Below are positions 4,113-53,763 of a stretch of 64,000 bases of DNA, piece by piece. The notes under the pieces were generated by a model. That model did no database searches. It worked only from the letters and a program-made list of their open reading frames with translations, and was not told the origin of the DNA. The DNA is from Patescibacteria group bacterium (GTDB taxonomy: Bacteria > Patescibacteriota > Minisyncoccia > RBG-13-40-8-A). Where the stretch lies: assembly GCA_043807255.1 (NCBI GenBank), contig JAZDGD010000009.1, positions 29,476-93,475 on the forward strand, given 5' to 3'. The translations under genes were made by a program, and so were the position numbers. How positions within the stretch are numbered: the stretch's first letter is position 1; each line of letters begins with the position of its first letter.

Positions 4113-4880
4113 TCATAATAATTCGTATTTGCCCGAACCAATAAATCTTAAATAATTTTTATTTCTTAAAAATTGTAATTGTTGTCGGATTTTATCCTTA
4201 ATGTGTTTATTTTCCGGATGAATAATTTTTAGGTCAGTTTCGAAATTATAAATATCTTGTAAATAAAATTCTTTTTTATCTATAAAATCAATACAATTCA
4301 TAATATCTAAAATCCAGCCCCTTGCGTCTGCTTTTTTAATTTTTTTAAGAAAAACCGTTTTTTGCCATTTATCTAAAACTTGTTTTTTAGAAATTTCTTT
4401 TCCGTTTTCTACGTAAAATACTTGCCCCGCTTTGGGAATTTTTGAAAATAAAATATTTGAACCGATCCAGCCAGCTCTTCTGGCTGTCTCTTTTAGGGGT
4501 TTTCTTTTCTCAACAATTTCAGAAACAAAAAAATGTTTTGGCACAACTAAAAAATCATTTACATACAGCGACTCTAAATATCCCATAAAAAAGAAATTTG
4601 GTTTAACTTGAGAATTTATTCTTTCTATCATTTTCGAATATGCTCCAGCGGGTATAATTTTATTAATCTTTCCTTTTTTTGATTTTAATTCAAAATCTTC
4701 ATTACATTTTTCACAATAAAAATCTGCTACTGGCTTATTGTTCTCATAATTAGTAATCTTTATATTCCCACAATTAGGACAAAAAATTTCATTGTTGACC
4801 CAGTTCTCCGTTAAAACTCTCGTTTTTTGAGATAAACTTTTGTATTTATCGGCAATTTTTGTATCGAAAGATAAATTCAT
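4113..4880 (-). CDS. DpnI-like methylation-dependent (GmATC-type) restriction endonuclease
   Basis: 255 aa. N-terminus has SQKTRVLTENWV...FCPNCGN...NNKPVADFYCEKCNEDFELKSKKG (zinc ribbon plus PD-(D/E)xK region). C-terminus has IKDKIRQQLQFLRNKNYLRFIGSGKYELL (winged helix). The layout and many residues match my recollection of S. pneumoniae DpnI (254 aa). Confidence 0.55.
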   Translation of the reverse strand: MNLSFDTKIADKYKSLSQKTRVLTENWVNNEIFCPNCGNIKITNYENNKPVADFYCEKCNEDFELKSKKGKINKIIPAGAYSKMIERINSQVKPNFFFMGYLESLYVNDFLVVPKHFFVSEIVEKRKPLKETARRAGWIGSNILFSKIPKAGQVFYVENGKEISKKQVLDKWQKTVFLKKIKKADARGWILDIMNCIDFIDKKEFYLQDIYNFETDLKIIHPENKHIKDKIRQQLQFLRNKNYLRFIGSGKYELL

Positions 4881-4939
4881 ATATTTTTATCATACCTCTT
4901 TTAATAAATTTTTACCAGCATTATAGATATTTTAACAGA

Positions 4940-5137
4940 AATACCCGAGGTCTGACCTCGGGTATTTCTGTATCTTATGAGGCTAAGCCTCGTAAGATAT
5001 AATCCTGATATCGGGAGGTTCGACCTCTAACGCCCCCCCGCATCAACACTTAATATTGGGAGGTCGAACCTCTTATTATGTGGGACGTGCGACGTCCCAC
5101 ATAAATACGAAACATACGGAGAACTGTTCTCCGTATC
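4940..5137. repeat. Array of six different GC-rich hairpins in tandem
   Basis: Hairpins: cccgaggtctgacctcggg (4945), cttatgaggctaagcctcgtaag (4975), gggaggttcgacctc (5013), gggaggtcgaacctc (5058), gtgggacgtgcgacgtcccac (5080), atacggagaactgttctccgtat (5115). Confidence 0.6.
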
Positions 5138-5173
5138 TTCTATCTGTCCACTATTAATGAGAATTTGTTTGTC

Positions 5174-5291
5174 ACTGAGACAATTTCGCAGGCAAAATGC
5201 ATGGTTTCGTCCCAACAAACATGTCGTGGACGAAATTTTGCCGAGAATTAGCACGGCCACTCGCTGGAGTGGCCGATGCGTGTCGACATGA
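5174..5291 (-). ncRNA. Conserved structured element, copy A, in the 3' region of rpsI (candidate ncRNA or cis-RNA element)
   Basis: About 75% identical to 52317-52422. Compensatory changes preserve three stems. The element ends 18 nt from the rpsI stop codon. Confidence 0.4.
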
Positions 5292-5309
5292 CAAATAAAT
5301 TCGAGTGCT

Positions 5310-5843
5310 CTATCTCTTGCTCCACTGTGGCGCCTTACGGGCTTTCTTGAGGCCGAATTTTCGACGCTCTTTCTCTCTTGGGTCTCTTTTTAAAAATCCT
5401 GCCTTCTTTAGTTTCTTTCTAAAATTAATATCAAAAATAATCAATGCTCTAGAAATACCATGTCTGATTGCTTCCGCTTGTCCAGAAATTCCACCGCCAT
5501 TAACTTTCACTGTTCCTGAAAATCGGTTTGCTGATTTTAGCTTTGCAAACGGAGATTCGATTGTTTGTTGTAAAATTTGGGTTGGAAAATATTGCTTATA
5601 ATTTTTTCCATTAACTATAAGATTCCCTGCTTCCATTGATTCTGATGGATTGACAGTAAAAAGCCGAACACGAGCAACTGCTCTTTTTCTTCTGCCAACG
5701 GCCTCAATATATTCTGACTTTTTGAGCTTCCTCTCTCCAACAACGTCTTCAGAAATAGGCAGGACAACCTGAATATCCTCTGTACTTTCAGCGGGTTTTT
5801 TGGCCACTTTAACAGATTTAATTTTACTTGATTTCTCCGGCAT
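5310..5843 (-). CDS. rpsI: 30S ribosomal protein S9 (with N-terminal extension)
   Basis: C-terminus GRRKRAVARVRLF...RKFGLKKARKAPQWSKR is typical of S9. Confidence 0.85.
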   Translation of the reverse strand: MPEKSSKIKSVKVAKKPAESTEDIQVVLPISEDVVGERKLKKSEYIEAVGRRKRAVARVRLFTVNPSESMEAGNLIVNGKNYKQYFPTQILQQTIESPFAKLKSANRFSGTVKVNGGGISGQAEAIRHGISRALIIFDINFRKKLKKAGFLKRDPREKERRKFGLKKARKAPQWSKR

Positions 5844-7416: not shown

Positions 7417-8049
7417 TTATCTTGAATAAAATTCAATAATCATTGCTAGGTCAACCGGAAGTTCAACCTGTGCCCTGCCCGGAGCCCCATGAACAATTGC
7501 TTTAAATGTTTCACCCTCCTTGCTCTCAACTGAAAGCCATGACGGAATAGTTTGTTTTTTAATTTTTGCTTCCATGTCTTTAAATATGATCTTTTTTATA
7601 CTTTCTGGCCTGATTGCAATAACATCGCCCTTCTTAAGATGAATTGATGGAATGTCAACCCTTTTGTTGTTTAACAAAACATGACCATGGCTAACTATTT
7701 GTCTGGCCTTGGCCCTCGATCCGGCAATTCCTAATCTAAAAATAGCGTTATCTATTCTGGTTTCTAATTTTGCAATTAGAACATCGGGCACAACACCCTT
7801 TACCCTTGAAGCTTCTTCAAAATATTTTCTAAACTGTCTCTCGGTTATTCCATAAATTTTCTTAACTTTTTGTTTTTCAGCTAATTGAGCACCATATTCA
7901 GATAGAGCTGATTTATGTTTCTTTGCTTTCATGCCCGGAGGATATGGCTTTTTGATCATTGCGCACTTTACACTAAAACATCGCTCTTCTCGTAAAAAGA
8001 GTTTTTGCCCTGAACGTCTACATTTTTTACAAATTGGTCCTCTTAACAT
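7417..8049 (-). CDS. rpsD: 30S ribosomal protein S4
   Basis: 210 aa with the N-terminal Cys cluster and an S4 domain. Confidence 0.85.
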   Translation of the reverse strand: MLRGPICKKCRRSGQKLFLREERCFSVKCAMIKKPYPPGMKAKKHKSALSEYGAQLAEKQKVKKIYGITERQFRKYFEEASRVKGVVPDVLIAKLETRIDNAIFRLGIAGSRAKARQIVSHGHVLLNNKRVDIPSIHLKKGDVIAIRPESIKKIIFKDMEAKIKKQTIPSWLSVESKEGETFKAIVHGAPGRAQVELPVDLAMIIEFYSR

Positions 8050-12109: not shown

Positions 12110-12212
12110 CTATATTATATCATTAATTTTAAAACAAAACAAAACAAAGAGCAAATAAAAAAAGTCTATACGGGTTCACCGCATAGACCAGACGATTTTA
12201 TAGTCCTTTCCA

Positions 12213-12512
12213 CTACAGGCCAGCAAAAATCTCTCCACCGAGCACATCTATCTCTTGTAACCATTTTCGAAATTTTATTAATTGTCTCACGATTGTATTA
12301 AACTCACCCGCCCCATAGAATAAGTTTCTCAAGTAAGTAATAGGATATTCCACAATCGTTATCGGAATAATTAAAATGGTTATTAATAGCGATGCTAGCT
12401 GAATTAAAACAAACCATAAAACAAGAAAAAATGTGACCATAAAAAAAAGCAAAAAAAATGATATTGCCAAAAACCATTCTCCAAGCCCATCACACAATTT
12501 TTCTTTTTGCAA
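12213..12512 (-). CDS. Small membrane protein, hypothetical
   Basis: 99 aa with two predicted TM helices. Confidence 0.35.
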   Translation of the reverse strand: MQKEKLCDGLGEWFLAISFFLLFFMVTFFLVLWFVLIQLASLLITILIIPITIVEYPITYLRNLFYGAGEFNTIVRQLIKFRKWLQEIDVLGGEIFAGL

Positions 12513-12639
12513 GGTACTCTCCTTTTCGCTTTTTAGCGATAATTTAATGTATCAAATTAAAAAAATTTCGTCAAGCGTTTGCAAACACAAACACCACATA
12601 AATACCATAAACACTATATCAATATTATAAACATTCTTT

Positions 12640-12675
12640 GTTTCCATTTTTGTACGGCCGTAATAAAATGGAAAC
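12640..12675. repeat. Nested-palindrome repeat, family A, 3' copy (gtttccatttttgtacggccgtaataaaatggaaac)
   Basis: 11-bp outer stem enclosing a tacggccgta inner palindrome. Lies 30 nt downstream of the stop codon of 12706..13266. Confidence 0.7.
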
Positions 12676-12705
12676 AAAATTATCTGTTAAAAAACATGAA
12701 CTATG

Positions 12706-13266
12706 TTATTCGAATCTTACTTTTTTAACTAAAAGAAAATCTACAAAAGATTTTAAATTATATTGTTCAATCAATTCTTTGGTTTCTTTCTCTGTGTCAT
12801 ATTGGCAAACCCAAATACTTTGTTGCATTTTTTTATATCCTAAATATTTCAATCCCCTCCTAAACCAATCCCTGTCTTTTCGCCTACTTTCCGATATGTC
12901 AAATAAAACCATTTGCCACTTTCTGTCTTTTCTTAGGTTATTGTCTGTCAATTTTAATTTTGTGATAAATAATTTTTCGAAACCTTTTGATGTAATTATT
13001 ACGGCCGATTTATCCTTCGCTCTTAACGTTTTCAAATAACCACTACTTTTTAACTTACAAACCGTTCCAGCAAATCTTCTTTTGCTTTTTTCCCTTTCGC
13101 GTTTCTTTTTGTTTTCATTTGTCCACTCGTCTCTGAATGTATTGAAGTCGGAAAAACGCAACCCTCCTCTTTCGGGAATAATTTTGCCAATTACGTCTTT
13201 TGTTTTATTTTTGAAATTATATAAATCCCAAAGAAATTGTTCGGTAAATGGTAATTTAAGTCTCAT
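12706..13266 (-). CDS. Winged-helix / Cas2-VapD-like fusion protein (paralog 1)
   Basis: The C-terminal half, KWQMVLFDISESRRKDRDWFRRGLKYLGYKKMQQSIWVCQYD, matches the Cas2 core pattern (hVhhhYDI..RR..h...L...G.RhQxSVFxC). The N-terminal half, CKLKSSGYLKTL...VIITSKGFEKL, looks like a winged helix. Confidence 0.55.
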   Translation of the reverse strand: MRLKLPFTEQFLWDLYNFKNKTKDVIGKIIPERGGLRFSDFNTFRDEWTNENKKKREREKSKRRFAGTVCKLKSSGYLKTLRAKDKSAVIITSKGFEKLFITKLKLTDNNLRKDRKWQMVLFDISESRRKDRDWFRRGLKYLGYKKMQQSIWVCQYDTEKETKELIEQYNLKSFVDFLLVKKVRFE

Positions 13267-13278
13267 AGAATATTATTA

Positions 13279-13315
13279 TGTTTCTATTTTATTACGGCCG
13301 TAATAAAATAGAAAC
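13279..13315. repeat. Nested-palindrome repeat, family A, 5' copy (gtttctattttattacggccgtaataaaatagaaac)
   Basis: 13 nt upstream of the ATG of 12706..13266. Differs from the 3' copy by a compensatory C/G to T/A change that keeps the outer stem intact. Confidence 0.7.
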
Positions 13316-13396
13316 AATTTGAATTTAATAATTAAAATTAATAAATCCCATAATTAATAAACGATTAAATTTATAAATCTTTCGATTATTAAAATT

Positions 13397-15160
13397 TTAT
13401 TCCAAAATTGCCTTGATGCGACGAACGCCGGATGATGATGCTTCTTCTTTTAAAATTTTAAAATGTCCCAATTCCCCTGTTTTTTGAACGTGTGGTCCAG
13501 AACAAATTTCCTGGCTGAAGGCCAGTACCGAGGCCGTCGAGGGAGCACCACCTATTGTATAAACTTTAACCATATCTCCATATTTTGATTCAAAAACTCC
13601 CATTGCTCCAATTTCTTTCGCTTTTTCTAATGACACCTCTACACAATTCACCGGTAAATTTTGTATAATCACTTCATTCACTGCATCCTCGACTTGTTTA
13701 AGTTGATCCGCGGTCATTTTTTCTGAATGCGAAAAATCTAAACGTAATCTTTCGGCAGTAATATTTGAACCTTTTTGAAAAACATGATCACCCAAAACTT
13801 TTCTTAGTGTTGCCAACAACAAATGTGTTGCAGTGTGATATTTTACAACTTGTTCTGAATTATCCGCTAATCCCGATTTAAATTTTCCTGCAGTTGCAGT
13901 GCGTGAAAGTTCTTGATGTTGTTCGAATTCTTTTTGAAATTTTTCTTTATCAATTTTTATTCCTTTTTCTTTTGCCAACTCTTCGGTGATTTCGATCGGA
14001 AAGCCGTAAGTTTGATATAAATTAAAAGCGTCTTTGCCAGAAATTAATTCTAATTTTTTCTCGCTACGCGAGATCTCGTAAAGCGAGACAAATTCTTTTA
14101 ATCCTTTTTCTATTGTTGCTCTAAATTTTCTAGTCTCATGAGAAAGTTTGTTTAAAACTTCCGCACATTTGTCTTCGAGTTCGAACTCTCGATAATCGTT
14201 TTTATAAACGTCTATAACTTTCTGAGCAACCGATTTCAAATTTTTGGAATCGAAATTTTTATCATTTGTATAGGTGTAAACTATGGCTCGTCGAATTAAA
14301 CGACGCAAAATATATCCCTGATCCTTATTAGATGGTTCAACGCCGTCAAAAAGTAAAAACACGCTAGCTTTTATATGGTCGGCAATTATTCTTTGAGACT
14401 TGAGATTAATTGATGGCAAAAGATCTTTAATTTTATCCATTATCGGTTTGAACGTATCAATTTCATAAACATTGTTATAACCATTTAAAATCGCAGTCGT
14501 TCTTTCTAACCCCATCCCTGTATCAACATTCTTTTGTTTTAACGGTTCAAGCTTTCCATCTGCTGTTTTATTAAATTCCATAAAAACATTGTTCCAAATT
14601 TCCACTCCATCATAAAAAATCTCTGTATCTGGACCACAAGGTCCGCCAGCTGATTGCCCCCACCAATTGTCTTCTTTTCCTAAAAATTTGATTTTATTTT
14701 TTGGAATTCCTAATGATTCCCAGGTTTTTGCTGAAATCTCATCTTTCGGAACAGCTTGCCCTGAGGAACTCGAAGGGTCGCCCTTAAAGCAAGTAACCGA
14801 TAATTTTTCGATTGGCAAATTTAATTCTTTGGTCAAAAATTCCCAACTCATCTTAATTGATTCTTCTTTCCAATATGATCCGAGCCCCCAATTCCCCAGC
14901 ATTTCAAAAAAGGTTAGATGCCAATTATCGCCAACTTCGTCAATATCGATTGTTCTGATGCATTTTTGTGAATTAACCAATCTATCGCCCATGGGATGTT
15001 TTTCTCCCAATAAATACGGAACCAATGGATGCATTCCTGCGGAAATAAATAAAGCACCAGGATCATTTTCCGGAATCAAAGAAGCAGAAGGAATAATTTT
15101 GTGTCCCCTCTCTTCAAAAAACTTCAGATATTTTTCTTTCAACTCTTTTGTCGTAATCAT
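13397..15160 (-). CDS. alaS: Alanyl-tRNA synthetase (short form lacking the C-terminal region)
   Basis: 587 aa with a class II catalytic core and the editing-domain motif HTATHLL. Confidence 0.8.
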   Translation of the reverse strand: MITTKELKEKYLKFFEERGHKIIPSASLIPENDPGALFISAGMHPLVPYLLGEKHPMGDRLVNSQKCIRTIDIDEVGDNWHLTFFEMLGNWGLGSYWKEESIKMSWEFLTKELNLPIEKLSVTCFKGDPSSSSGQAVPKDEISAKTWESLGIPKNKIKFLGKEDNWWGQSAGGPCGPDTEIFYDGVEIWNNVFMEFNKTADGKLEPLKQKNVDTGMGLERTTAILNGYNNVYEIDTFKPIMDKIKDLLPSINLKSQRIIADHIKASVFLLFDGVEPSNKDQGYILRRLIRRAIVYTYTNDKNFDSKNLKSVAQKVIDVYKNDYREFELEDKCAEVLNKLSHETRKFRATIEKGLKEFVSLYEISRSEKKLELISGKDAFNLYQTYGFPIEITEELAKEKGIKIDKEKFQKEFEQHQELSRTATAGKFKSGLADNSEQVVKYHTATHLLLATLRKVLGDHVFQKGSNITAERLRLDFSHSEKMTADQLKQVEDAVNEVIIQNLPVNCVEVSLEKAKEIGAMGVFESKYGDMVKVYTIGGAPSTASVLAFSQEICSGPHVQKTGELGHFKILKEEASSSGVRRIKAILE

Positions 15161-15199
15161 TGCTTAAATTATACAATAATAAAAAAAACAAATCCACTG

Positions 15200-15228
15200 T
15201 TGACAAAAATAATGGATATGGTACAATT
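15200..15228 (+). promoter_or_regulatory. Consensus sigma70-type promoter (TTGACA, 17-bp spacer, TACAAT)
   Basis: Exact hexamers with optimal spacing, read directly from the sequence. Confidence 0.6.
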
Positions 15229-15261
15229 ATATTGTCTTAAAAATTCTACTGGAGGTGTAAA

Positions 15262-15426
15262 GTGTTTAAAAAGAATTATTTTGTGATGCTGGAAGACGGC
15301 AAGATGATATCCGAACCCTTCGGATGGCGTGGCGTCCACAAGCAGGTCAAATTCCTGTTCGAGAAGGGAAAGACGTGCCGGGTCTTCAAGGAAAGAAAAA
15401 TCGGACTGAGGGTCAAAGTAGTATAG
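15262..15426 (+). other. GC-rich small transcription unit: sRNA or 54-aa small protein (GTG start, SD GGAGG)
   Basis: GGAGG lies 6 nt upstream of GTG. The reading frame VFKKNYFVMLEDGKMISEPFGWRGVHKQVKFLFEKGKTCRVFKERKIGLRVKVV uses GC-rich codons unlike neighbouring genes. The unit is bracketed by a consensus promoter and a strong terminator. Confidence 0.35.
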
Positions 15427-15455
15427 CTCCACCGACATCAGTTCTCGATCACAAC

Positions 15456-15492
15456 GGCCGATGCGGGCGAACCCGCATCGGCTTTTTTTATT
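15456..15492 (+). terminator. Intrinsic terminator (cggccgatgcgggcgaacccgcatcggc plus T8)
   Basis: Perfect GC-rich stem followed by a T tract. Confidence 0.7.
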
Positions 15493-15569
15493 TAACCCCT
15501 CCACACCTCCCCTTATCAAGGGAGGTTATTGTTTTTTGCCGAATAAAATAGAGGTGGCCCGTGCCACCC

Positions 15570-16193
15570 CTACATGTTTCTTATTCTATCGAACTCCTCC
15601 TCAGAAAATACCATCCACCGTTTTTGGTGCTTGGCGTAATATTTTTCGGCGTTTGTGCGTGTAGTTATTATCCTCCTATTGTCATTAAAAAAATAACTTT
15701 TTCTGTCGGTATTGAACGCCTTGTCATGCTCGCCAATAATCCTCTCTAAGGCACTGGCCATGCATCTTGTATCGTAATGCATGCGTGCCAACAACTTTAT
15801 TGTTGCGAAATCAACGGAAGCCTCTCGCTCTTGATCGTCAAATGCTACAATATTGTTCAAGGCATGGCAAATCTCATGCAAAACAATGGAGACTAGTTCG
15901 GCTTCGTTGTTAACAGCCTCAACAACCCTTTCGTCGATATATATTTCTTTCGTATCATTAATAATATATGCCCATTCGGGATTATTGAGCGAGGCACTAA
16001 CATAATAAATTTTAAATCCGATTTTATTTGCCCCGTCAACAAAATTAATGATTTTGTCGAGAATCTTATTTAACAATACATCACCATAGACGCCCTTATT
16101 CTCAAAATCATTAATTGTTTGCGCGAAGCAAAAATACAGGACGAGAAAGAACAAGGCCACTAAACCTTTCTTTTCCATTGTTTCCCTCCTCAA
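15570..16193 (-). CDS. Secreted/lipoprotein HExxH zinc metallopeptidase
   Basis: 207 aa with a signal peptide and the HEICH motif. Confidence 0.5.
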   Translation of the reverse strand: MRRETMEKKGLVALFFLVLYFCFAQTINDFENKGVYGDVLLNKILDKIINFVDGANKIGFKIYYVSASLNNPEWAYIINDTKEIYIDERVVEAVNNEAELVSIVLHEICHALNNIVAFDDQEREASVDFATIKLLARMHYDTRCMASALERIIGEHDKAFNTDRKSYFFNDNRRIITTRTNAEKYYAKHQKRWMVFSEEEFDRIRNM

Positions 16194-16228
16194 AATGACT
16201 TATGTTTATAATACCAAATAATTAAATT

Positions 16229-17232: not shown

Positions 17233-17733
17233 CTATTTTTTACTTCTAAAAATTCCGATAAAAATTAATGGCACTATAAACCAAATTATCCGTGCAAGGG
17301 TTGTATTAAAAACTTCTAATGGCAAACTACTAAACTTAGAAATCAAATCAGCGGGCAAAAAAGAAAAAATCATACTTACAACAATCCCAACCAAAAATAT
17401 TCCATAAAAAAATGCTTGAAAAATTGCACGATTGGCCTTTCTTCTTGCTTTTAATATTGATTTTGAAAACAAGAGATAGACAATGCCAATTAACAATAAA
17501 AACAAAACAATCATCACCACAAAATTTTCTTCTGCTTTAAAAAAATCGGGCAGAAGTTTTTTAATCGGCACGATACTTATTATTGCCGAGGAAACATAAC
17601 CACCCAACAACATTAAAAAAAGCTTGTCCTTGCCAATCATTAGTCCCAATAAAAATCCCCCCGCGAACAAAAACAAAAAAACAATCATCTCCCAACTCGT
17701 AATATTTAAATTTACATTCGCTAATTGCGTCAT
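17233..17733 (-). CDS. Membrane protein (CvpA-like)
   Basis: 166 aa with four predicted TM helices. Confidence 0.35.
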   Translation of the reverse strand: MTQLANVNLNITSWEMIVFLFLFAGGFLLGLMIGKDKLFLMLLGGYVSSAIISIVPIKKLLPDFFKAEENFVVMIVLFLLLIGIVYLLFSKSILKARRKANRAIFQAFFYGIFLVGIVVSMIFSFLPADLISKFSSLPLEVFNTTLARIIWFIVPLIFIGIFRSKK

Positions 17734-18857
17734 AATCCCTCCCCTTTTAGTTCTTCGATTAATTCTTCTTGCTTTCTTGATAATTTATGCGGGACTTTGA
17801 TGTGAATTTTTACATACTGATCACCGCGACCATAAGAATTGAGTCGTGGCATCCCCTTGCCCGACAACCTGAAAGTTTTTCCAGCCTCGGTCCCTGCCGG
17901 AATCTTCAATTGCAAATCCCCTTCTAATGTTAAAATATTAATCTTATCTCCTAAAATTGCCTGACTATATTTTATTTCTGTATCAGAATACAAATCATCT
18001 CTTTTGCGTGTAAAATAGTCGTGTTGCTTTAAATGCACCCGCACATACAAATCCCCAGAAACCCCGCCTTTTTTGGCCGCCTCACCTTTCCCAGAAATTT
18101 TTATAGTTTGTTCATTATCAACTCCCGCCGGTAAATCAATCTTAATATTCTCAATTTCGTGGGTTCTTCCCGACCCCTTACATTCCTTACATTCTTTTTC
18201 GTTAAGCTCACCTTCTCCTAAACATTTAGGACAAGTTATAACTTGCGAAAAAGTTCCAAACATAGTTCTTCTGGTTTGTTGAACCTGTCCTTGACCATCA
18301 CATTCTGAACATTTTTTCTTGCCACTCCCCGGTTCTCCGCCAACACCCTTGCAGTGCTTACAAATAATATATTTCTTTAAATTGATTTCTTTAGAAACTC
18401 CTGCAAATGCTTCTTCTAGGTTAATGTCTAAATCAACAACAATGTCTTTGCCTTTTTCTTTTCTTGTTCTGCGTCCACCCCCACCACCATTGCCACCAAA
18501 GAACTGACTGAAAATATCCGAAAATCCACCACCACTTCCACCAAAAATATCGTTTAAATCAAATTCTACATTTTGACCCTGTGACTGATAATTTCTAAAT
18601 ATATCATCCCAACTCATCCCCCCACCAAAACCAGCTTGTCCGCCTTGAGTGGAAAAAATATCTCCAAATTGATCGTATTGCTGACGCTTTTCGTCGTTAG
18701 ACAAAATAGAATATGCCTCATTAATTTCTTTGAATTTCTTCTCATCACCGCCTTTATCGGGATGGTGCTGATGCGCAAGTTTTCTAAAAGCCTGCTTGAT
18801 TTCATCCCTGGAAGCATTTTTTTCTACACCCAATAATTTGTAGTAATCTTTTGACAT
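17730..18857 (-). CDS. dnaJ: Chaperone DnaJ
   Basis: J-domain with HPD, a Gly-rich linker, and four CxxCxGxG repeats. Confidence 0.9.
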   Translation of the reverse strand: MSKDYYKLLGVEKNASRDEIKQAFRKLAHQHHPDKGGDEKKFKEINEAYSILSNDEKRQQYDQFGDIFSTQGGQAGFGGGMSWDDIFRNYQSQGQNVEFDLNDIFGGSGGGFSDIFSQFFGGNGGGGGRRTRKEKGKDIVVDLDINLEEAFAGVSKEINLKKYIICKHCKGVGGEPGSGKKKCSECDGQGQVQQTRRTMFGTFSQVITCPKCLGEGELNEKECKECKGSGRTHEIENIKIDLPAGVDNEQTIKISGKGEAAKKGGVSGDLYVRVHLKQHDYFTRKRDDLYSDTEIKYSQAILGDKINILTLEGDLQLKIPAGTEAGKTFRLSGKGMPRLNSYGRGDQYVKIHIKVPHKLSRKQEELIEELKGEGL

Positions 18858-18929
18858 GTTTTATTAACTTGACAATATATTTATAATATGATAGTATCAA
18901 ATTGACCAAATTTAACAAGGAGGATTCTA

Positions 18930-19112
18930 ATGATTTTAGAGACTTTCGAATCGCAAGAGTTTAGTTCCCTGAAAACGTCAATCGAATTTTATACGAGAGA
19001 AAAGAGGTACAAGGTCTTGTTCGTAAGTATCGCTTTCAACAGCATCGTTGATCCCAAAAAAGATTATTTTCCCTATATCGCTATCGTGGGATTTAAACGA
19101 AAATTTTTTTAA
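18930..19112 (+). CDS. Small hypothetical protein (60 aa) with its own promoter, SD and terminator
   Basis: TTGACA-17-TAGTAT at 18869-18897. AAGGAGG sits 6 nt before the ATG. Terminator hairpin at 19142-19177. Confidence 0.4.
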   Translation: MILETFESQEFSSLKTSIEFYTREKRYKVLFVSIAFNSIVDPKKDYFPYIAIVGFKRKFF

Positions 19113-19184
19113 TCATCGCGTGCTCAATTTTAATTCGATCCGACCCTGATTTTATAAATCGGGGTCATTTTTTTATTTAAAAAG

Positions 19185-20057
19185 TTACAAACTAATCATT
19201 TCTACTTCTTTTTGAATTTTTTCAAATTTAATAAATTTAAACTTGGTTAATAATTTGACCATCCCCCAACTCAACATTATCACTATTCCGACATACAGCA
19301 TGCTCACTATCTTTAGGGTAATGAACAATCCAACCGCCAATCCTAACGGGATTAAATACTGATAAGCACCGGTAACATTGTTTAATTGATAATCAATTAT
19401 TTTATATAAAACTTTTCTGCCCGTGTCATCTTTTTCCACTTTAATCCCAAATTTATTTTCCAATTCTTGTTTTTGTGACTCCTGAAGAATTTTATCGGCA
19501 TTTGAATCTAAATCAATCCCCAATGGAAGCTTTTTCTCAATTAGTCCTTCAAGTGGTTTTAAAATTGCATTTATGGTTTTTTCTGGAACATTTATTTTGG
19601 TCGTACTCTTTCTTGTTAGTTCTGGTGAAAAATAATAAACAATCGAAACAACCAGAATTAAAGCAGTTAAAAATATTGGCAGTCCTCTTTTAAAAATTCT
19701 AAAAAAGTTTAAATCAATTTGGACATCTTCTTCTTTTTTAATCTTTTTAGAAGCAGACATAAATGCCAGGAACAATAAGCCCAAAACAATCAGATAATAT
19801 AACGGTTCGGCGTTGAAGAAAATAAAAAATAGCAACAAGCTAATCACAAATCCACCAAAAAGAATTCGTTTATCTTTAACTAAAAGCATCGTCAAACAAT
19901 TGGCAATGCCGAATAGAACAAAAATTCCCACAATCAATGCCCAATGACTAACGAAATAATTGTGGCCATAAAATATCATTCTTAACATCCACCAACACAA
20001 AAAACTAAATAACACTAAAACACTAGCCAAAACTATTTCTTTTTGTTTCGTTTGCAT
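19185..20057 (-). CDS. Polytopic membrane protein, hypothetical
   Basis: 290 aa with multiple TM helices. Confidence 0.4.
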   Translation of the reverse strand: MQTKQKEIVLASVLVLFSFLCWWMLRMIFYGHNYFVSHWALIVGIFVLFGIANCLTMLLVKDKRILFGGFVISLLLFFIFFNAEPLYYLIVLGLLFLAFMSASKKIKKEEDVQIDLNFFRIFKRGLPIFLTALILVVSIVYYFSPELTRKSTTKINVPEKTINAILKPLEGLIEKKLPLGIDLDSNADKILQESQKQELENKFGIKVEKDDTGRKVLYKIIDYQLNNVTGAYQYLIPLGLAVGLFITLKIVSMLYVGIVIMLSWGMVKLLTKFKFIKFEKIQKEVEMISL

Positions 20058-24150: not shown

Positions 24151-25532
24151 GATTATACAATACGCTAACCAGAAAAAAGGAAATTTTTAAACCCATTAAG
24201 AAGGGTTTTGTTGGTATTTATACTTGCGGGCCAACCGTTTATTCTTTTGCTCACATTGGGAATTTAAGAAGTTATGTTTTTGCTGATATTTTAAAAAGAA
24301 TTTTTATTTACAATAAATATAAAGTAAAACACGTAATCAATGTAACTGATGTTGGACATTTAACCTCTGATGCCGATGAAGGCGAAGATAAAATAGAAAA
24401 AGCGGCCTTGCGCGAAAATAAAAAAGCTGAAGATATCGCAAATTATTATTTTGGATTTTTCAAACGAGACCTAGAAAAACTTAATATTTTAAAACCAGAA
24501 ATTTATTGTAAGGCAACCGAACACATTAAAGAACAAATTGAGTTAATCAAAAAGCTTGAAAAAAAAGGATTTACTTATAAAACCTCTGATGGAATTTATT
24601 TTGATACATCTAAAATAAAAGACTACGGTAAGCTTGCACAATTAAAAAAAGAAGGGTTAATTGCTGGCAAGAGAATTGATTTTAAAGAAAAGAAAAATAT
24701 CACTGATTTTGCTTTATGGAAATTCTCCCCGCCTATCGGCGGGGCAAGCTTCTCTCTTAAGAGACAACAGGAATGGAAAAGTCCTTGGGGCGTTGGCTTT
24801 CCCGGCTGGCACATTGAATGCTCGGCAATGTCTATAAAATATCTCAGTGAACATTTTGATATTCATACTGGCGGGATTGACCACATTCCAATTCATCACA
24901 CCAACGAGATTGCCCAGTCCGAAGCAGCTACCGAAAAGAAATTCGTAAATTATTGGATACACGGCGAATTCCTTAATTTTAAAGGGAAAAAAGTTTCGAA
25001 ATCGAAAGGCGGGCTTTATACCGTTTCGGAGTTGCAAGAAAAAGGATTTAATCCCCTTGCATTTCGTTATTTAACATTTATCACTCATTATCGTGACCCA
25101 TTAAATTTTTCCCTAGAATCATTACAAAGCGCACAAGAATCATATAATCGATTAAAAAATATTATATGGGAGAACCGAGACAAAAGAACCAAAAAAGAGT
25201 ATTTGAAAGAATTTCAAAAAGCTATTAACGATGACTTAAATATGCCCAAGGCATTAAGCATTGTTTGGAAAATGGTACGAGACAAGAAACCCGCCCGCAA
25301 CGCCAGCAAGCTGTCTTGCTTGGCAGGCGAGGTGGACAAGGTTTTTGGATTGGATTTGTTAAAGAAAGAAAAGATAGAAATTTCTTCCGGCGTTGAGGAT
25401 TTAATCAAAGACCGCGAACAATCAAGAAAGAATAAGGACTGGCAAAAATCCGACGAGCTTCGTGACAAAATAAAATCCCTCGGTTATACCGTCGAAGACA
25501 CCCCCGAAGGACAAAAAATTAAGAAAATATAA
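24141..25532 (+). CDS. cysS: Cysteinyl-tRNA synthetase
   Basis: HIGN and KVSKSKG (KMSKS) motifs and the SPWG..GWHIECS zinc site. Confidence 0.9.
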
Positions 25533-36570: not shown

Positions 36571-36827
36571 TTTGTTTCTTTGTCTTGTTTCGGGGAGTTA
36601 TCCCCCGTTATGATTAGTTATCAACACTTCTATCCACATCTCACCACCTTGATTACATTTTAATCCACAAAAATACACGTGTCAACCCCGCAGCTGCGGG
36701 GTAAATCCCTTGTGGCTAAAATTACAAATTCCCCTCTATGCAAGGGGAATTTTCAATAATCACACAAAAAGTTATGCACAGCTTTTACACTATACTGATT
36801 TTATTAAAATTAATTTGTTAAATAAAA

Positions 36828-36860
36828 TAGCCCTTAACCGCTTCGCGCGATTAAGGGCTT
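36828..36860 (-). terminator. Intrinsic terminator of the GC-rich gene (gcccttaa..ttaagggc followed by TATTTT on the minus strand)
   Basis: 8-bp stem read on the minus strand, followed by a T-rich tract. Confidence 0.5.
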
Positions 36861-36874
36861 CTGAAATTCAGAGA

Positions 36875-37486
36875 CTAGAGATTTGGCTCTTTGGCAGAAG
36901 CGAGGCCGATGCTACTGTCGTCGTTGGAGTCATCCCAGTCGATGATGCGGAGACCGTCCTTGTCGAAGATGCCGAGACTGAAAGAATCGCCATACGAATT
37001 CACATTCGAAGTTCTGACCCAGATGCGTTTAAACAAGCGTTCATTGTTCTCCAGACAATTCAGCATGATGGCATAGGCCATTTGTCGAACCATGGGAACA
37101 ACTTCGTTGGTCTGGAGCAGATGCTGCTGTTTGCCCCAGTTCTTTTTGCGGGAATTGGGAACTTCTGCTTTCCGAATCAGACGCCACTGCGGAGTTTCCT
37201 GCTCCTCGGCCCAGCCGTACGATTCGCAAAAGCCTAAATGCTGGTCGCAGAATAGACCATCCTTCACTCTGCCACGAACATCAAGAAGCGAGATCCCGAA
37301 GTCGGCAATGAGGATATGGTCGTTCTTCGTTGCTTCCAACACCTCTTCGGTAAACGGAATCACCGAAAACGCCTTGGCGATTTCATTGGTCATCGAGACA
37401 TTGAAACGCCGGACGGCTACGTCTACGCCGAGAAGATTACGACCCATGATTTCACGAACAGAATTGAGTTTTAAAAACTTGCTCAC
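36875..37486 (-). CDS. GC-rich hypothetical protein of atypical composition (probable GTG start with SD AAGGAG; alternative ATG at 37447)
   Basis: Region 36880-37480 is far more GC-rich than its flanks. The 203-aa ORF VSKFLKLNSVREIMGRNLLGVDVAVRRF...HILIADFGISLLDVRGRV... has balanced amino-acid composition. Overlapping plus-strand ORFs look spurious. Confidence 0.45.
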   Translation of the reverse strand: MSKFLKLNSVREIMGRNLLGVDVAVRRFNVSMTNEIAKAFSVIPFTEEVLEATKNDHILIADFGISLLDVRGRVKDGLFCDQHLGFCESYGWAEEQETPQWRLIRKAEVPNSRKKNWGKQQHLLQTNEVVPMVRQMAYAIMLNCLENNERLFKRIWVRTSNVNSYGDSFSLGIFDKDGLRIIDWDDSNDDSSIGLASAKEPNL

Positions 37487-37607
37487 TCTAAATCTCCTTT
37501 TAATATAAATTTTATGGCTCTCTCCGACTTTTACGTCGTAGCTCGCCATAATTTCAAAGGACAAATACAATTCATATATACCATATCGCAAAAATCTTGT
37601 CAAATTA

Positions 37608-37648
37608 TTTCTTGTCGCCATTAGAACGCCATGGCGTAATTATGGCGT
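37608..37648. repeat. Nested-palindrome repeat, family B, 3' copy (tttcttgtcgccattagaacgccatggcgtaattatggcg)
   Basis: Inner perfect palindrome acgccatggcgt with an outer cgccat/atggcg stem. Lies 31 nt downstream of the stop codon of 37680..38255. Confidence 0.7.
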
Positions 37649-37679: not shown

Positions 37680-38255
37680 CTAATTGATTTTAAATGTTTC
37701 TCTTAACTCTCTATCATCTCCTATTCTGTCGGCCACGATTAATCTAATTTCGTTTTCGGTTAATCCAAAAAAATCTCTCAACAAATCGATTTCATCTTTA
37801 CAATTAAATGGATGGATCCAAACACTTTTTTGAATTAATTGAAATCCCAACTCTTTTAATTTTCCGCGAAAAGCATCTCTATGGGCCTTTTTCAAATGTG
37901 CAATATCAAACATAACCAATCTCCATTTCTTGTCCCATTTTTTCGGTTTACCGATCTTTAATTCGTCTATCTGCATCCAACCAGCTTTTCTCTTGCCTTT
38001 GTCCGTAAGCGAAATATGCATGCCACCTTTTTTGATTTCTATCTTTATCAATCCTTGTTTCTTGAGTTTATAAAAATTGTCTTGCACCTTTTTGTTGCCA
38101 TATCTTTTAAATTGCTTCAATCCCCTCATTAAATTTCGTATAAAATAAGGAGAACTAGCCGCGACGACAACTGCACCAGAAATTAATAGTGCTATCAAAA
38201 TATCTTTAACAATTTCAGATTTTGGTTTTTTAAAATAATATTTATATTTTGTCAT
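37680..38255 (-). CDS. Winged-helix / Cas2-VapD-like fusion protein (paralog 2, with N-terminal TM helix)
   Basis: KKWRLVMFDIAHLKKAHRDAFRGKLKELGFQLIQKSVWIHPFN is Cas2-like. FYKLKKQGLIKIEIKKGGMHISLTDKGKR is wHTH-like. Aligns along its length with paralog 1. Confidence 0.55.
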   Translation of the reverse strand: MTKYKYYFKKPKSEIVKDILIALLISGAVVVAASSPYFIRNLMRGLKQFKRYGNKKVQDNFYKLKKQGLIKIEIKKGGMHISLTDKGKRKAGWMQIDELKIGKPKKWDKKWRLVMFDIAHLKKAHRDAFRGKLKELGFQLIQKSVWIHPFNCKDEIDLLRDFFGLTENEIRLIVADRIGDDRELRETFKIN

Positions 38256-44798: not shown

Positions 44799-46784
44799 AT
44801 GGATTCAGAAAATCTTAATTTATATTACCGAGAAATTGTCTATCAAGACCCCAAAAAGAAAAAAGATTCAATTTGCGGGGTTTTTTCGTATGAAGCGATA
44901 AACAAACAAGACCTGGGACTAGGCAATCTTTATATTGTAGGAGAAATTACAAATATTCCCAAGAAAAAATATAAAAATTCTGACTTTATTTTAAACCTCT
45001 TAAGTTCGGCAATTAGGAGAGATTTTTATTCTAACCCACAAAGAAACACGCTGGAAGCATTAGAGTCAGCGCTTCAAAGCGCAAATATTTATTTAACCGA
45101 TTTCGTTAAAAAGGGACACAATGAATGGATTAACAATCTGCATTTTACTTGTTTAACCTTTTCTGGAAACAATATTCACGTGGGTCAAACCGGAGAAATG
45201 ATCGTACAATTGTTCCGCAACAACACAATGTCTAATATCAGTAGAAAATTTGAAACACCAGAAATCCCAGAGCCAACAAAAACATTTTCCAATATTGCCA
45301 GCGGAGAGATAGAAAAAGGCGACAAAATATTAATTAGCACTACCAATATTTCAAAAATTCTACCCTCTTCCAAAATAAAAGAAATAATTTCCAGTTCCAC
45401 TACCGACAAACTTTATCACTACATTAAAAACAATTTATCAGAATCAAGTTCATTGGCTTGCCTACTATTGGATGCGGCAACTCAAAAACCGGAAGAAGCT
45501 CCGACCGCAATCCAAGCCCAAGTCAGGACAGAAACCAGAAAAGAAGGGCCAACTAATTTTGGGTTAAACCTTAGGCAATCAATTGATTTTAAAATGGAAA
45601 AAATAGATCAAATTATAAAAGATCAAATTACTTTTCCTAATAAAATAACGATCTTTTTTCTAAAACATCAAATTATAAAATATTTTTTAATTTTATTTAT
45701 CGGATTAACAATTATCATTTCTCCGTACTTGATTTTGAAAATCAGTTATGACATTAAAATTAGACAAATAAACGAATTAATTCAACGCACACAGGAGAAT
45801 GTCGAACGCAGTAAGTTGTCTTTGGTCTACCAAAATCAACCAGAAGCAAAAACATTTTTAAAACAAGCGACTGTTTTTTTGGAAAATGCAAATTTATTAT
45901 TTGCCAACCTTCCTTTGGACGCAAAAAATAAAGTATCCAATAATCTACAATTAATACAGGGTCTGCTTGATCAACAAAAAAATAGTCTAAATAATGTTAT
46001 CAATATTCAGTTACCAGAAAAAATTACTGATTTATCACAAAGCGTCTATCCATTCAACCCCCAGGGATTAGTAAAACTAGAAAACCTGATTTATCTCTAC
46101 GAATTGAATTCTGGATTTTTGCATCAAATCGATTTAATTGATAACTCTTCAAAGCTTATATTCCTCTCATCAAAAGACACATTTAAACTCGGAACAGCTA
46201 CAGACAACGAAGTGCTATTGTTGGCCAACCCAGAAAAAATCGCTGTTTATAATTATAATGAAAATTACAATATCTATTTGCTTAAACCAAATCTAGAAAA
46301 CACCCTAAACATCAAAAGCATGACGAGTTATGATGATAATCTATTCTTTCTGGATGTCCAAAGATTAAATGTGTTTAAATATTCTAAAACCGAAGATATT
46401 TTAAACGGCTCGCAATGGATTATGAAAGGCCCAACTGACGAATTAAAAGACGCAACCTCTATTGCTGTAGATGGCGACATATATATTTCATTAAACACTG
46501 GAAAAATTATTCAATACTCCCAAGGCAAAAAAAATAAAGAATTAAAAATTGACATCTCCCCCGCCCTAATCAACGCAGAAAAATTATTTACTCAGTCCGA
46601 TTTCAAAAATTTATATATCCTAGATAAGACAAACAGCAGAATTATTTCTTATAATAAGAAAGATGGATTAATAAAACAATATTTTCTTTCTGGGCTTAAC
46701 AATCTTAAAGACTTTTGGGTTGATTATGACGAAAGCATAATTTATCTACTAAACGGTTCAGAAGTTTATAAAATAGAAATCTAA
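44799..46784 (+). CDS. Membrane protein with an N-terminal PP2C/SpoIIE-like phosphatase domain and a large extracytoplasmic region
   Basis: GDKILISTTNISKIL resembles the PPM GDxxLLxTDG motif. TM helix around residue 285. Confidence 0.35.
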   Translation: MDSENLNLYYREIVYQDPKKKKDSICGVFSYEAINKQDLGLGNLYIVGEITNIPKKKYKNSDFILNLLSSAIRRDFYSNPQRNTLEALESALQSANIYLTDFVKKGHNEWINNLHFTCLTFSGNNIHVGQTGEMIVQLFRNNTMSNISRKFETPEIPEPTKTFSNIASGEIEKGDKILISTTNISKILPSSKIKEIISSSTTDKLYHYIKNNLSESSSLACLLLDAATQKPEEAPTAIQAQVRTETRKEGPTNFGLNLRQSIDFKMEKIDQIIKDQITFPNKITIFFLKHQIIKYFLILFIGLTIIISPYLILKISYDIKIRQINELIQRTQENVERSKLSLVYQNQPEAKTFLKQATVFLENANLLFANLPLDAKNKVSNNLQLIQGLLDQQKNSLNNVINIQLPEKITDLSQSVYPFNPQGLVKLENLIYLYELNSGFLHQIDLIDNSSKLIFLSSKDTFKLGTATDNEVLLLANPEKIAVYNYNENYNIYLLKPNLENTLNIKSMTSYDDNLFFLDVQRLNVFKYSKTEDILNGSQWIMKGPTDELKDATSIAVDGDIYISLNTGKIIQYSQGKKNKELKIDISPALINAEKLFTQSDFKNLYILDKTNSRIISYNKKDGLIKQYFLSGLNNLKDFWVDYDESIIYLLNGSEVYKIEI

Positions 46785-46839
46785 CAGACCACGAATTACT
46801 AATCTGTACGAATATACAGATAAAAACAGAAACGCCCTG

Positions 46840-46878
46840 CAGTTGCAGGACGTTTCTGTTTGGAGGCCGAACCTCCGC
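46840..46878 (+). terminator. Intrinsic terminator (11-bp stem aaacagaaacg...cgtttctgttt)
   Basis: Nested hairpin plus a T tract after the 44799..46784 gene. Confidence 0.6.
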
Positions 46879-46951
46879 CTATTATTTCAATTCAATCGTT
46901 GCACCAATCCCGATCTCTATCGAGGATCCCGACCCGAGGTCGGGACTGCAC

Positions 46952-47359
46952 CTATTTAAGCTCTACGGTGGCTCCAACGCCTTCTAACCTTGTTTTTAAC
47001 TCTTCTGCATCTTCTTTCTTAAGATTTTCCTTAATAACTTTCGGAGCCGCGTCAACAATTGCTTTTGATTCCTTTAATCCAAGCCCAGAAATTTCACCGA
47101 TGATTTTAATAACCTGAATCTTTTGATCTCCAGCTGATTTTAATTCGACATTAAAAGCTGTTTTTTCAACTTCGACGCTCGCTTCTGGCGAGGTCGGAGT
47201 CCCGACTCCCGCGGACGTCGGGATTGCCGCACTAACTCCAAATTTTTCTTCTAAAACTTTAACAAGTTCAGACAAATCCATAACAGTCATTTTTTCAATT
47301 TCATCAACTAATTTTTTGAATTTTTCTGGAACCTTTACGTCCTTGTTTTTTTCAGTCAT
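46952..47359 (-). CDS. rplL: 50S ribosomal protein L7/L12
   Basis: Ala/Glu-rich and L12-like. Confidence 0.85.
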   Translation of the reverse strand: MTEKNKDVKVPEKFKKLVDEIEKMTVMDLSELVKVLEEKFGVSAAIPTSAGVGTPTSPEASVEVEKTAFNVELKSAGDQKIQVIKIIGEISGLGLKESKAIVDAAPKVIKENLKKEDAEELKTRLEGVGATVELK

Positions 47360-52287: not shown

Positions 52288-52315
52288 CCCTCACCCAAAG
52301 TGAGGATTTATTTTA
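52288..52315. terminator. Bidirectional terminator (ccctcacccaaagtgaggg with flanking T/A tracts)
   Basis: Hairpin followed by TTTATTTT. Confidence 0.65.
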
Positions 52316-52316
52316 T

Positions 52317-52422
52317 ACTGAGACAACTTCGGAAGCCAAAAGCACGGTTTTTTCTGAAAGAAAAATTTTGGCTGAGAATTAATGCAGCCACCCGCTGGGG
52401 TGGCTGACATGTGTCGACATAT
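52317..52422 (-). ncRNA. Conserved structured element, copy B (3' region of the SLT-domain gene)
   Basis: Aligns with 5174-5291. Ends 18 nt after the stop codon of 52441..53763. Confidence 0.4.
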
Positions 52423-52440
52423 AAAATGAATCTGAGCGTC

Positions 52441-53763
52441 CTACCCTTTTTCCATAATATCAATTTGTTCTTGAAAATTTTCTGCTCTTTCCATCACTTG
52501 ATCACCATAAAAACGCAAAGACGATTTTTGCCAATTTGCACCGGCCAAATACATCATTGTTGCTTTCCATTCTGCTTTTTCTGTTTTTTGATCAGCCCCC
52601 TTATTCACCAAATATAGTGCCGAAGCAATAAATGCATCTTTAACATTCCACGGTGATGGCGGATTATTTCCTGTTATTTCTGCAATTTTTGCCTTATACC
52701 CCAACCAAGTGGCTGGCATCATTTGCGCTGGGCCCATTGCCCCACCCCAACCATACCAAACCTTTTTTGATACTGGATATTTATCTGGGTCAATTCCCAA
52801 TTCTTCACAAATCTGTAAATAATAAGTTCTTTGGCTTAGTTTCATATCAACTCGCCACGTTCCTTTGCCAATATTTTTTCCCAATTCTGATTCTCTGCTT
52901 AAAATTGCCAAAAGAAACGCTGGCCTTATTCCAGTATGAATTCCTGCAAATTTTGCATATTTATATGCATCTTCAAACCTTAACGAACCATCAGTTGATA
53001 TGTCTTGCAAAAAATAAAGTTTGTTTTTTATCGTTTCTATGTCGGCCTGAGTTTTTTTCATTAACTGATTAAACAGATTTTCTTGGCCATTGGTTTGGGC
53101 CAATAAATTATTCCTTTGTTTTTTCTTTAGTTCCAACCCAGCCCTCTGTTCGGCTTGTATATATTTTAATGATGCCTGTTCTTCTTTCTCGTTCACTAAA
53201 TCTGTTTTTTCTTTTTCTAAGGTTGATTTTGCATTAGAAATTTTCTTAAGCTGTTCTTGAACCTGTTGATGAAAATTTTCTAAAGATCTTATTTCCGAAA
53301 GAAAATCCGATAAACTCCCTTCAGTCAAAACCACTTCTACAAGCGAAGTGTCGTCATATTTTCTCACTTCTCTCAATAATTCGGCAATAGTTGTTTTTTC
53401 TAAATCAACTTCGCGCTCTATTTCGCGAATTGATTTTTCTTTTTGATTTATTTGCTTGTCGAGTTTCTTAATCAACAAATCAGTTCTTTGAATTTCTAAT
53501 TCTGCAGAATTAATTTGTGCATCTAAAATCACGATTTCTGTTTTTAATGATTTTGCCTGTTGTTGATTTTCGGTTATTGCTTGCTGATACTGGCCAATTT
53601 TTGATTCCAATTCTTTTAGTCGTGCCTCTGCTTCTTGCTCTTGGACATCAATATCGAGAGATGTCTCGGCAAAAACAAAACCCGCTCTAAGCGGAAAAAC
53701 GCAAAAAATGGCAATAATTGCCATTAAAATAAAACTTTTATTAAGTTTAACAAACTTAATCAT
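52441..53763 (-). CDS. Secreted coiled-coil protein with a C-terminal lytic transglycosylase (SLT) domain
   Basis: Signal peptide, long coiled coil, and GGAMGPAQMMPATW with SLT-domain-like context. Confidence 0.6.
   Translation of the reverse strand: MIKFVKLNKSFILMAIIAIFCVFPLRAGFVFAETSLDIDVQEQEAEARLKELESKIGQYQQAITENQQQAKSLKTEIVILDAQINSAELEIQRTDLLIKKLDKQINQKEKSIREIEREVDLEKTTIAELLREVRKYDDTSLVEVVLTEGSLSDFLSEIRSLENFHQQVQEQLKKISNAKSTLEKEKTDLVNEKEEQASLKYIQAEQRAGLELKKKQRNNLLAQTNGQENLFNQLMKKTQADIETIKNKLYFLQDISTDGSLRFEDAYKYAKFAGIHTGIRPAFLLAILSRESELGKNIGKGTWRVDMKLSQRTYYLQICEELGIDPDKYPVSKKVWYGWGGAMGPAQMMPATWLGYKAKIAEITGNNPPSPWNVKDAFIASALYLVNKGADQKTEKAEWKATMMYLAGANWQKSSLRFYGDQVMERAENFQEQIDIMEKG

Follow-up and report, generated by a model that had tools for sequence, protein, structure and literature searches.

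A variable small-gene slot next to alaS in a Patescibacteria genome holds a probable orphan gene for a 54-aa basic protein

Between alaS and a metallopeptidase gene of this Patescibacteria genome lies a short GC-rich unit with a promoter and a terminator of its own, which raises the question of whether it specifies a small RNA or a small protein. The original prediction had put forward both possibilities. We analysed the window (the whole 64-kb stretch of DNA in which the unit lies) together with related loci, and consider that the unit is probably an orphan gene for a 54-aa basic protein, located in a variable small-gene slot. Its location between the two genes was confirmed by the Pfam match of the AlaRS protein and by the HEICH sequence in the product of the second gene, and the features of the locus are as follows:

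15160, minus strand: ATG of alaS, the left neighbour, encoding a short-form AlaRS of 587 aa (Pfam E=1.6e-123)
15161..15199, minus strand: alaS promoter half, with TATAAT at 15173-15168, ending 7 nt before the alaS ATG, and the -35-like TGGATT at 15196-15191
15200..15227, plus strand: rightward σ70-type promoter, with TTGACA at 15200-15205, a 16-bp spacer and TACAAT at 15222-15227
15251..15255, plus strand: Shine-Dalgarno (SD) sequence GGAGG, 6 nt upstream of the GTG start
15262..15426, plus strand: 54-codon ORF with GTG start and TAG stop (15424-15426), sequence MFKKNYFVMLEDGKMISEPFGWRGVHKQVKFLFEKGKTCRVFKERKIGLRVKVV
15456..15489, plus strand: intrinsic terminator T1, with a 12-bp stem at 15456-15483 containing 9 G-C pairs, a CGAA loop and T7
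15505..15540, plus strand: hairpin with T-rich tail, a possible and weaker back-up terminator T2 (-12.2 kcal/mol, z=-2.8)
15540..16178, minus strand: convergent HExxH metallopeptidase-like gene, 202 aa, with a signal-peptide-like N-terminus and HEICH

Both promoter hexamers, TTGACA and TACAAT, are present as originally predicted, but their spacer is 16 bp rather than 17 bp. The site scores 11/12 plus a TG at 15219-15220 that gives an extended -10 box (TGgTACAAT), and it was the top site of a 3-kb promoter scan. Similarly, the predicted terminator is indeed a strong GC-rich stem (-24.8 kcal/mol, z=-5.45), although its T-run has seven residues and not eight, while the GGAGG and the GTG-started 54-codon frame were found as predicted at 15251-15255 and 15262-15426. 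The unit thus has the parts expected of a σ70 promoter and an intrinsic terminator, with -35 and -10 boxes spaced within 16-18 bp and a U-tract behind a GC-rich stem, and the ORF combines an open frame and a start codon with a ribosome-binding site within 5-9 nt, as expected for a bacterial gene. A leader of 28 nt with the GGAGG inside is predicted, and 29 nt separate the stop codon from the terminator stem. The view that this is a transcription unit was borne out by the promoter motif and its position, which are kept in eight relative loci, and by the strength of the terminator. The features that exceed chance level are the promoter, the terminator and the codon periodicity described below.

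In the reading that we prefer, the near-consensus σ70 promoter with its extended -10 box would start an autonomous monocistronic transcript near G15234, the 28-nt leader would present the GGAGG for translation to start at GTG 15262, and the transcript would end at the -24.8 kcal/mol intrinsic terminator, giving a predicted total of ~256 nt (~15234 to ~15490). The product would be a strongly basic (+8.6) protein of 54 aa with a predicted beta-beta-alpha-beta fold. The gene would be a lineage-specific accessory, recently gained and foreign-looking in composition, in a variable slot that lies behind one half of a conserved, back-to-back divergent promoter, the other half of which would drive a leaderless alaS.

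The alaS start has no SD sequence, and with a TATAAT so close to the ATG the alaS mRNA is probably leaderless. The back-to-back -35 elements TGGATT (alaS) and TTGACA (small gene) are 3 bp apart, and the 45 nt from the alaS ATG to the end of TTGACA form a block which was compared between 160 alaS loci and a few more from an exact protein look-up. The AlaRS relatives come from Paceibacterota-, Buchananbacteria- and Portnoybacteria-like MAGs, with none above 88% BLASTP identity in the database. The block has about one mismatch in 44 nt against L085 and is near-unchanged upstream of alaS in L085, L086, L089 and L098, with variants in L084, L093, L002 and L092, the last two also being detected with a promoter HMM. 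The AlaRS proteins of these block-bearing relatives are only 64-71% identical to that of the window, and the block is conserved more strongly than the adjoining coding DNA. TTGACA is invariant in L084, L085, L086, L089, L093 and L098, a -10-like TAnnnT is present 16-17 nt past it in all these relatives, and TG precedes this box in 6/7 aligned sequences. The block was not found in viral contigs.

The two closest relatives found both lack the unit. In L081, the closest relative found (AlaRS 88% identical by tblastn, 91% by alignment), alaS directly abuts mnmA and there is no counterpart of 15161-16217, i.e. of the small unit and the peptidase gene. L082 (AlaRS 72-76% identical) does have the peptidase, with 73% aa identity and only ~46 nt between the peptidase terminator and alaS, and lacks the ~380 nt bearing the promoter block, the ORF and both plus-strand hairpins; the peptidase was thus dropped as a candidate obligate partner of the small unit. 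The mnmA and alaS genes are adjacent (gap ~6-13 nt) in L081, L162, L163 and L083, while elsewhere their junction holds a small ORF, a peptidase, a PaaX-like gene or a membrane protein. In the AlaRS tree the window groups with the block-less L081, L161, L082, L162 and L163, with the block-bearing loci more distant, and the 5' coding region of the window alaS is closest to L082 and L081. L085 has the block and L083 lacks it, at 90% identity between their AlaRS proteins, which indicates fast turnover at the slot. Comparison of the insertion junctions with L081 and L082 showed neither target-site duplications nor flanking repeats. Judging from these sequences, the block may either be ancestral with several losses, or have been passed on laterally up to a sharp limit at the start of alaS.

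Downstream of the promoter, wherever the contig continues, the relatives have a strong SD sequence and an ORF, with a GC-rich terminator as well on those contigs that reach the 3' end. These ORFs are unrelated to the window ORF and mostly unrelated to each other:

L084 and L086: Cys-rich family, 87-92 aa
L089: double zinc-ribbon protein, 91 aa
L093, L002 and L098: one family, 69-114 aa
L161: membrane protein, 126 aa, with a different promoter

Comparison of the L093 and L002 genes gave a dN/dS of 0.11, and the L084 and L086 proteins share 55% aa identity with saturated synonymous sites; the two comparable cargo families are genuine proteins under protein-level selection, and by analogy the window slot would hold a protein gene as well. 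Most of the relatives' slot ORFs are enriched in GC and GC3 (GC3.38-.57). Recent lateral exchange between L093 and L002, of which the small proteins are 94% identical, was considered and dropped, as the alaS 5' flank is ~90% identical too. Members of the L084/L086 family, 25 in all, occupy varied places in their genomes, and of two extra members that were inspected, the one in L164 has the promoter-SD-terminator design, while the one in L167 has the terminator without an evident TTGACA promoter. No relative of the L084-type cargo was found in viral contigs. At 3390-3930 of L164 (JGI Ga0526691_0000006) there are two consecutive small-gene units amid a run of small hypothetical genes, both with a TTGACA promoter, an extended -10 box and GGAGG, the first with a GC-rich terminator, and both with a common CAAGCCAGTCrGAT motif just upstream of the -35 box.

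With regard to composition, GC content at the unit is 46-54% (150-nt windows) against a mean of 34.7% (sd 5%) for the whole window, and seven GC peaks, this unit among them, occur along the 64 kb. The peaks at 24726-24925, 46776-47050 and 59451-59775 reach at least 47% in 200-nt windows and mostly seem to lie within ORFs or at ORF ends. The codons of the ORF had been described as unlike those of any neighbouring gene, and this holds in so far as GC3 is.65, compared to.20-.36 for host ORFs, but GC3 is raised as well (.44) in the adjoining peptidase gene, which belongs to the same compositionally atypical segment as the 54-codon unit. The peptidase gene has its own SD sequence (GAGGAGGG) and its own terminator (stem 15573-15548), and the matches of its product to SprT-like and M48 families were below threshold. 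SD sequences are rare in this host, with GGAG or GAGG upstream of the start in ~3 of ~60 long ORFs, and only four ORFs of at least 30 aa in the 64 kb have GGAGG and a start codon, including the 54-codon ORF and the peptidase gene. In many core genes (e.g. starts at 1924, 12106 and 15160, and also 23236, 41378 and 51151) the ATG is preceded at 6-12 nt by a TATAAT-like box, which suggests that leaderless mRNAs are widespread among core genes, alaS included. The low GC3 of the host and its rare SD sequences make the 54-codon cargo look foreign, and GC3 and SD use unlike those of the host core point to foreign origin rather than de novo birth.

The rarity of SD sequences in core genes also makes it less certain that GGAGG is read here. 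Roughly half of the 16S genes of Parcubacteria reportedly lack the anti-SD motif (PMC9297842), and SD-poor core genes are consistent with such anti-SD loss in many Parcubacteria; the 64 kb do not include the 16S gene of this host. Against this, the retention of SD sequences in all slot genes of the relatives argues, by analogy, that GGAGG would be read by this host.

The predicted 54-aa product has a pI of 10.2, a net charge of +8.6 and a GRAVY of -0.32, and lacks a hydrophobic segment. Single-sequence AlphaFold2 gave a compact beta-beta-alpha-beta model (mean pLDDT 69.5), and these properties of the product favour a translated small basic protein. The model is only moderately confident, and a Foldseek search with it against the PDB gave nothing significant (best E=0.5), both of which weigh against a protein gene. 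With low confidence, the size, charge and predicted fold of the product may point to binding of nucleic acid or another polyanionic partner. The features of a type I toxin-antitoxin system were not seen, as the peptide is not hydrophobic and the opposite strand has only weak 9/12 promoter-like sites. An exhaustive HMMER search over 1.84 billion representative proteins gave 0 matches, and there was no homologue in a word-index protein search, in back-translated scans of genome, metagenome and viral contigs, or in a PDB sequence search, while tblastn against 50,697 phage records gave a best E of 1. The Pfam, NCBIfam and PADLOC profiles gave no match; the sole family hint came from PHROGs (phrog_2692, E=0.0094), which is below significance and concerns a family without assigned function. 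As for the DNA, blastn, tblastn and nhmmer found no syntenic orthologue of the unit across the 160 alaS loci, nor was any homologous sequence found in 167 related loci or in public collections. At no level was there a homologue, a point that counts against the preferred reading, and the ORF is an orphan.

This orphan state, together with the foreign composition, is also what would be expected if the unit were a functionless fragment, recently acquired or decaying, i.e. foreign DNA behind a resident promoter that is transcribed and perhaps translated, but selectively neutral and bound to be lost. The fast turnover of the slot, as seen in L083 versus L085 at 90% AlaRS identity and in the absence of the unit from L081, is in line with this, and at 54 aa the ORF is the shortest among the slot genes. 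We nevertheless regard such a fragment as unlikely, since its signals are intact (extended -10 box, optimal SD spacing, start codon, uninterrupted frame and a perfect 12-bp terminator stem) and the AlphaFold2 model is compact and not disordered. The ORF was also considered as a truncated copy of another slot gene, which was dropped because it has no similarity to any slot protein, and hence nothing marks it as a truncated remnant.

The other way to dispense with a protein is a noncoding small RNA, in which the 256-nt transcript would act by base-pairing or protein sequestration with the ORF being incidental. The short transcript with its strong promoter and terminator would suit this, as would a GC-rich island in an AT-rich genome, which is common for structured RNAs, and the lack of any protein homologue. 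The length of the ORF is uninformative by itself: when first-order Markov sequences were modelled after the body of the transcript, 36% of them had an open frame of 54 codons or more, which speaks for an RNA as much as against a protein gene. The use of GTG as start codon also counts against a protein gene. Periodicity is another matter: GC content at the three codon positions is.48/.26/.65, and among 8118 ORF-conditioned Markov ORFs, only 6 reached the observed periodicity by chi-square and only 1 by GC3-GC2 (p ~1e-3 to 1e-4), which is very unlikely for noncoding RNA. GC skew is positive on the plus strand at the unit and negative at the neighbouring minus-strand genes, meaning that in both cases G exceeds C on their own sense strand.

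A scan of the whole window with Rfam 15 at gathering thresholds gave six tRNAs and nothing else, and at E<=10 the best hit in 15100-15650 was FinP, whose 19 bits fall short of the threshold of 45 and come from the terminator hairpin alone. Known RNA families were thus rejected on both scans, in agreement with the earlier failure to match the unit to tmRNA, RNase P RNA, SRP RNA or 6S RNA. The transcript body without the terminator (15234-15452) folds at -50.5 kcal/mol, no better than the mean of shuffled sequences (-53.1 kcal/mol, z=+0.59), which speaks against a structured RNA, while the full transcript with terminator reaches z=-1.94. The two internal hairpins that had been taken as a sign of an sRNA both exist, but with this folding energy of the body they are at the level expected by chance for the composition of the unit. 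Absence from related genomes, named beforehand among the refuting signs, was seen in L081 and L082, so that close relatives do not share the unit. As the GGAGG is also ideally spaced from the start codon, and as the equivalent slots in relatives encode proteins where this is testable, we consider a noncoding RNA quite improbable. The structured-sRNA reading of the original prediction therefore did not hold up for want of an Rfam match, of excess body structure and of the region itself in L081 and L082, and its alternative, the 54-aa protein, is favoured by the codon periodicity, the spacing of the GGAGG, the skew and the SD-led ORFs in the slots of relatives. We infer that the 54-codon ORF is translated, and the sequence features make a protein gene rather than a conserved regulatory RNA the most likely nature of the unit.

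A dual-function RNA, which would encode the small protein and also have regulatory action via its 5' or 3' untranslated parts, has precedents in SgrS/SgrT, RNAIII/hld and SR1/SR1P, and could draw on the ~36% of the transcript that is untranslated and on the CCUCC/GGAGG-like and hairpin elements in the leader and 3' region, but is very unlikely here, as without homologues no target complementarity or conserved untranslated element is identifiable, as there is no excess structure beyond the terminator, and as the convergent peptidase transcript stops short of any overlap with the small-unit transcript.

The window does contain another element that is a far better noncoding-RNA candidate than the 54-codon unit. 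This structured element of ~160 nt is found at 5147-5314 and 52290-52445 of the window (both minus strand), and at 7746-7899 and 5141-5300 of L025 (both plus strand), and it has no match in Rfam; ARAGORN was run on the side region 4700-5500 only. The wider region 4930-5310 folds at -171 kcal/mol versus -100 kcal/mol when shuffled (z=-12.3). The four copies have compensatory changes in 29/36 predicted pairs, and 95.8% of the cells in their alignment are paired versus 36-44% in slid controls, with the alignment having been fitted to the model so that these pair counts lean towards structure. Each copy starts at the stop codon of an upstream gene on the same strand, being an S9-type gene, a 440-aa gene, the L025 alaS gene and a 245-aa ORF, and the element could belong to 3' UTRs or be a structured repeat of the ERIC/REP kind.

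Besides the 54-codon unit, the window has two more small units of similar design:

18869-19175, plus strand: second mini-gene with a 60-aa ORF, with TTGACA, 17 bp, TGaTAGTAT, AAGGAGG and ATG at 18930
12150-12600, minus strand: third SD-led unit, for a 99-aa hydrophobic protein, with a TTGACG promoter, AAGGAGAG and a TTG start

The three promoter-SD-sORF-terminator units (54, 60 and 99 aa) break a tightly packed run of core genes on one strand, and all are in segments missing from L081. The terminator of the 99-aa unit (12153-12190, minus strand) is homologous to 15456-15493 on the plus strand, with 30/38 nt identical and compensatory differences in the stem; this shared hairpin occurs nowhere else in the window, nor in any of the 167 loci. 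The 60-aa unit has its terminator at 19142-19166, followed by a T-run, and is divergent from a gene for 375 aa (17730-18857, minus strand) that was taken as dnaJ by synteny with L161. Its segment without counterpart in L081 is 18861-19198, and its product has no family in NCBIfam.

Near the 99-aa unit lies a PaaX_M/Cas2-like gene (12706-13266, minus strand, 186 aa), which is bracketed by near-identical palindromes of ~38 bp at 12637-12680 and 13279-13317, centred on TACGGCCGTA; the complete unit (~12124-13391) is missing from L081. The PaaX-like gene of L089 is likewise bracketed (~2100-2140 and 2790-2830), by a different palindrome centred on CCGATCGG, and these palindromes could be operator sites or the ends of a mobile unit. 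A second PaaX_M/Cas2-like gene (37680-38255, minus strand) adjoins a 248-aa ORF at 36875-37621 (minus strand, GC3.56), a compositionally foreign orphan without match in Pfam or PADLOC that lies within the GC peak 36826-37475.

Several known systems resemble parts of this locus. In size (less than ~60 aa), in its own monocistronic unit with promoter-SD-ORF-terminator layout, in the lack of family assignment and in its strain-specific distribution, the window ORF is similar to orphan bacterial small proteins, although it is unlike the host core in GC3 (.65 versus.20-.36) and SD sequence, and its translation is predicted. The promoter block resembles promoters shared by housekeeping and divergent genes in having its -35 elements 3 bp apart and in being conserved beyond the flanking coding DNA, but differs in that the alaS arm is apparently leaderless and that the cargo of the other arm varies between genomes. 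In E. coli, AlaRS represses transcription from its own promoter; no regulator or operator was identified at the divergent alaS promoter. With an integron platform and its Pc promoter the locus has in common that the resident promoter is conserved, and that the short ORFs behind it are unrelated, atypical in composition and different between relatives, but the window slot has a single cargo and not an array, and one slot cargo family is also found at other loci with its own promoters. No integrase, attI or attC was seen, with recombinase domains looked for in the immediate neighbours, and the 3' hairpins of the unit are perfect GC-rich terminators with U-tracts and not attC-like imperfect palindromes. 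High identity between loci stops at the -35 hexamer, and each cargo may therefore carry its own -10 box. Finally, the slot is similar to flexible genomic islets in that the mnmA-alaS junction is tight in some relatives and has varied insertions in others, but it differs in its tiny scale (0.3-1 kb) and in having one promoter block in most of the occupied loci.

A more far-reaching proposal would be that the alaS-divergent block is a fixed 'expression dock' of this Patescibacteria lineage, at which unrelated SD-led small-gene modules are repeatedly swapped, with the 54-aa gene as one such cargo; this is speculative and probably not the case. If it were true, the modules would consist of leader, SD sequence, ORF and GC-rich terminator, with some of the terminator hairpins being homologous, mobile small genes would form a class of their own, recognisable by SD-led translation amid a core that is mostly SD-less or leaderless, and the 54-aa cargo would have a strain-level role such as in host interaction or phage conflict.

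Returning to the preferred reading of an orphan gene for a basic protein, the unit by itself contributes a further small orphan protein to a phylum which is rich in uncharacterised ones, and is ordinary in kind, while its context, a small-gene slot with SD-led cargo in an SD-poor genome, is modestly novel. If this were general, strain-specific small proteins in Patescibacteria would be findable as SD-led, GC3-enriched ORFs in SD-poor genomes, and the slot would provide a testable case for the coexistence of SD-dependent and leaderless initiation of translation in Patescibacteria.
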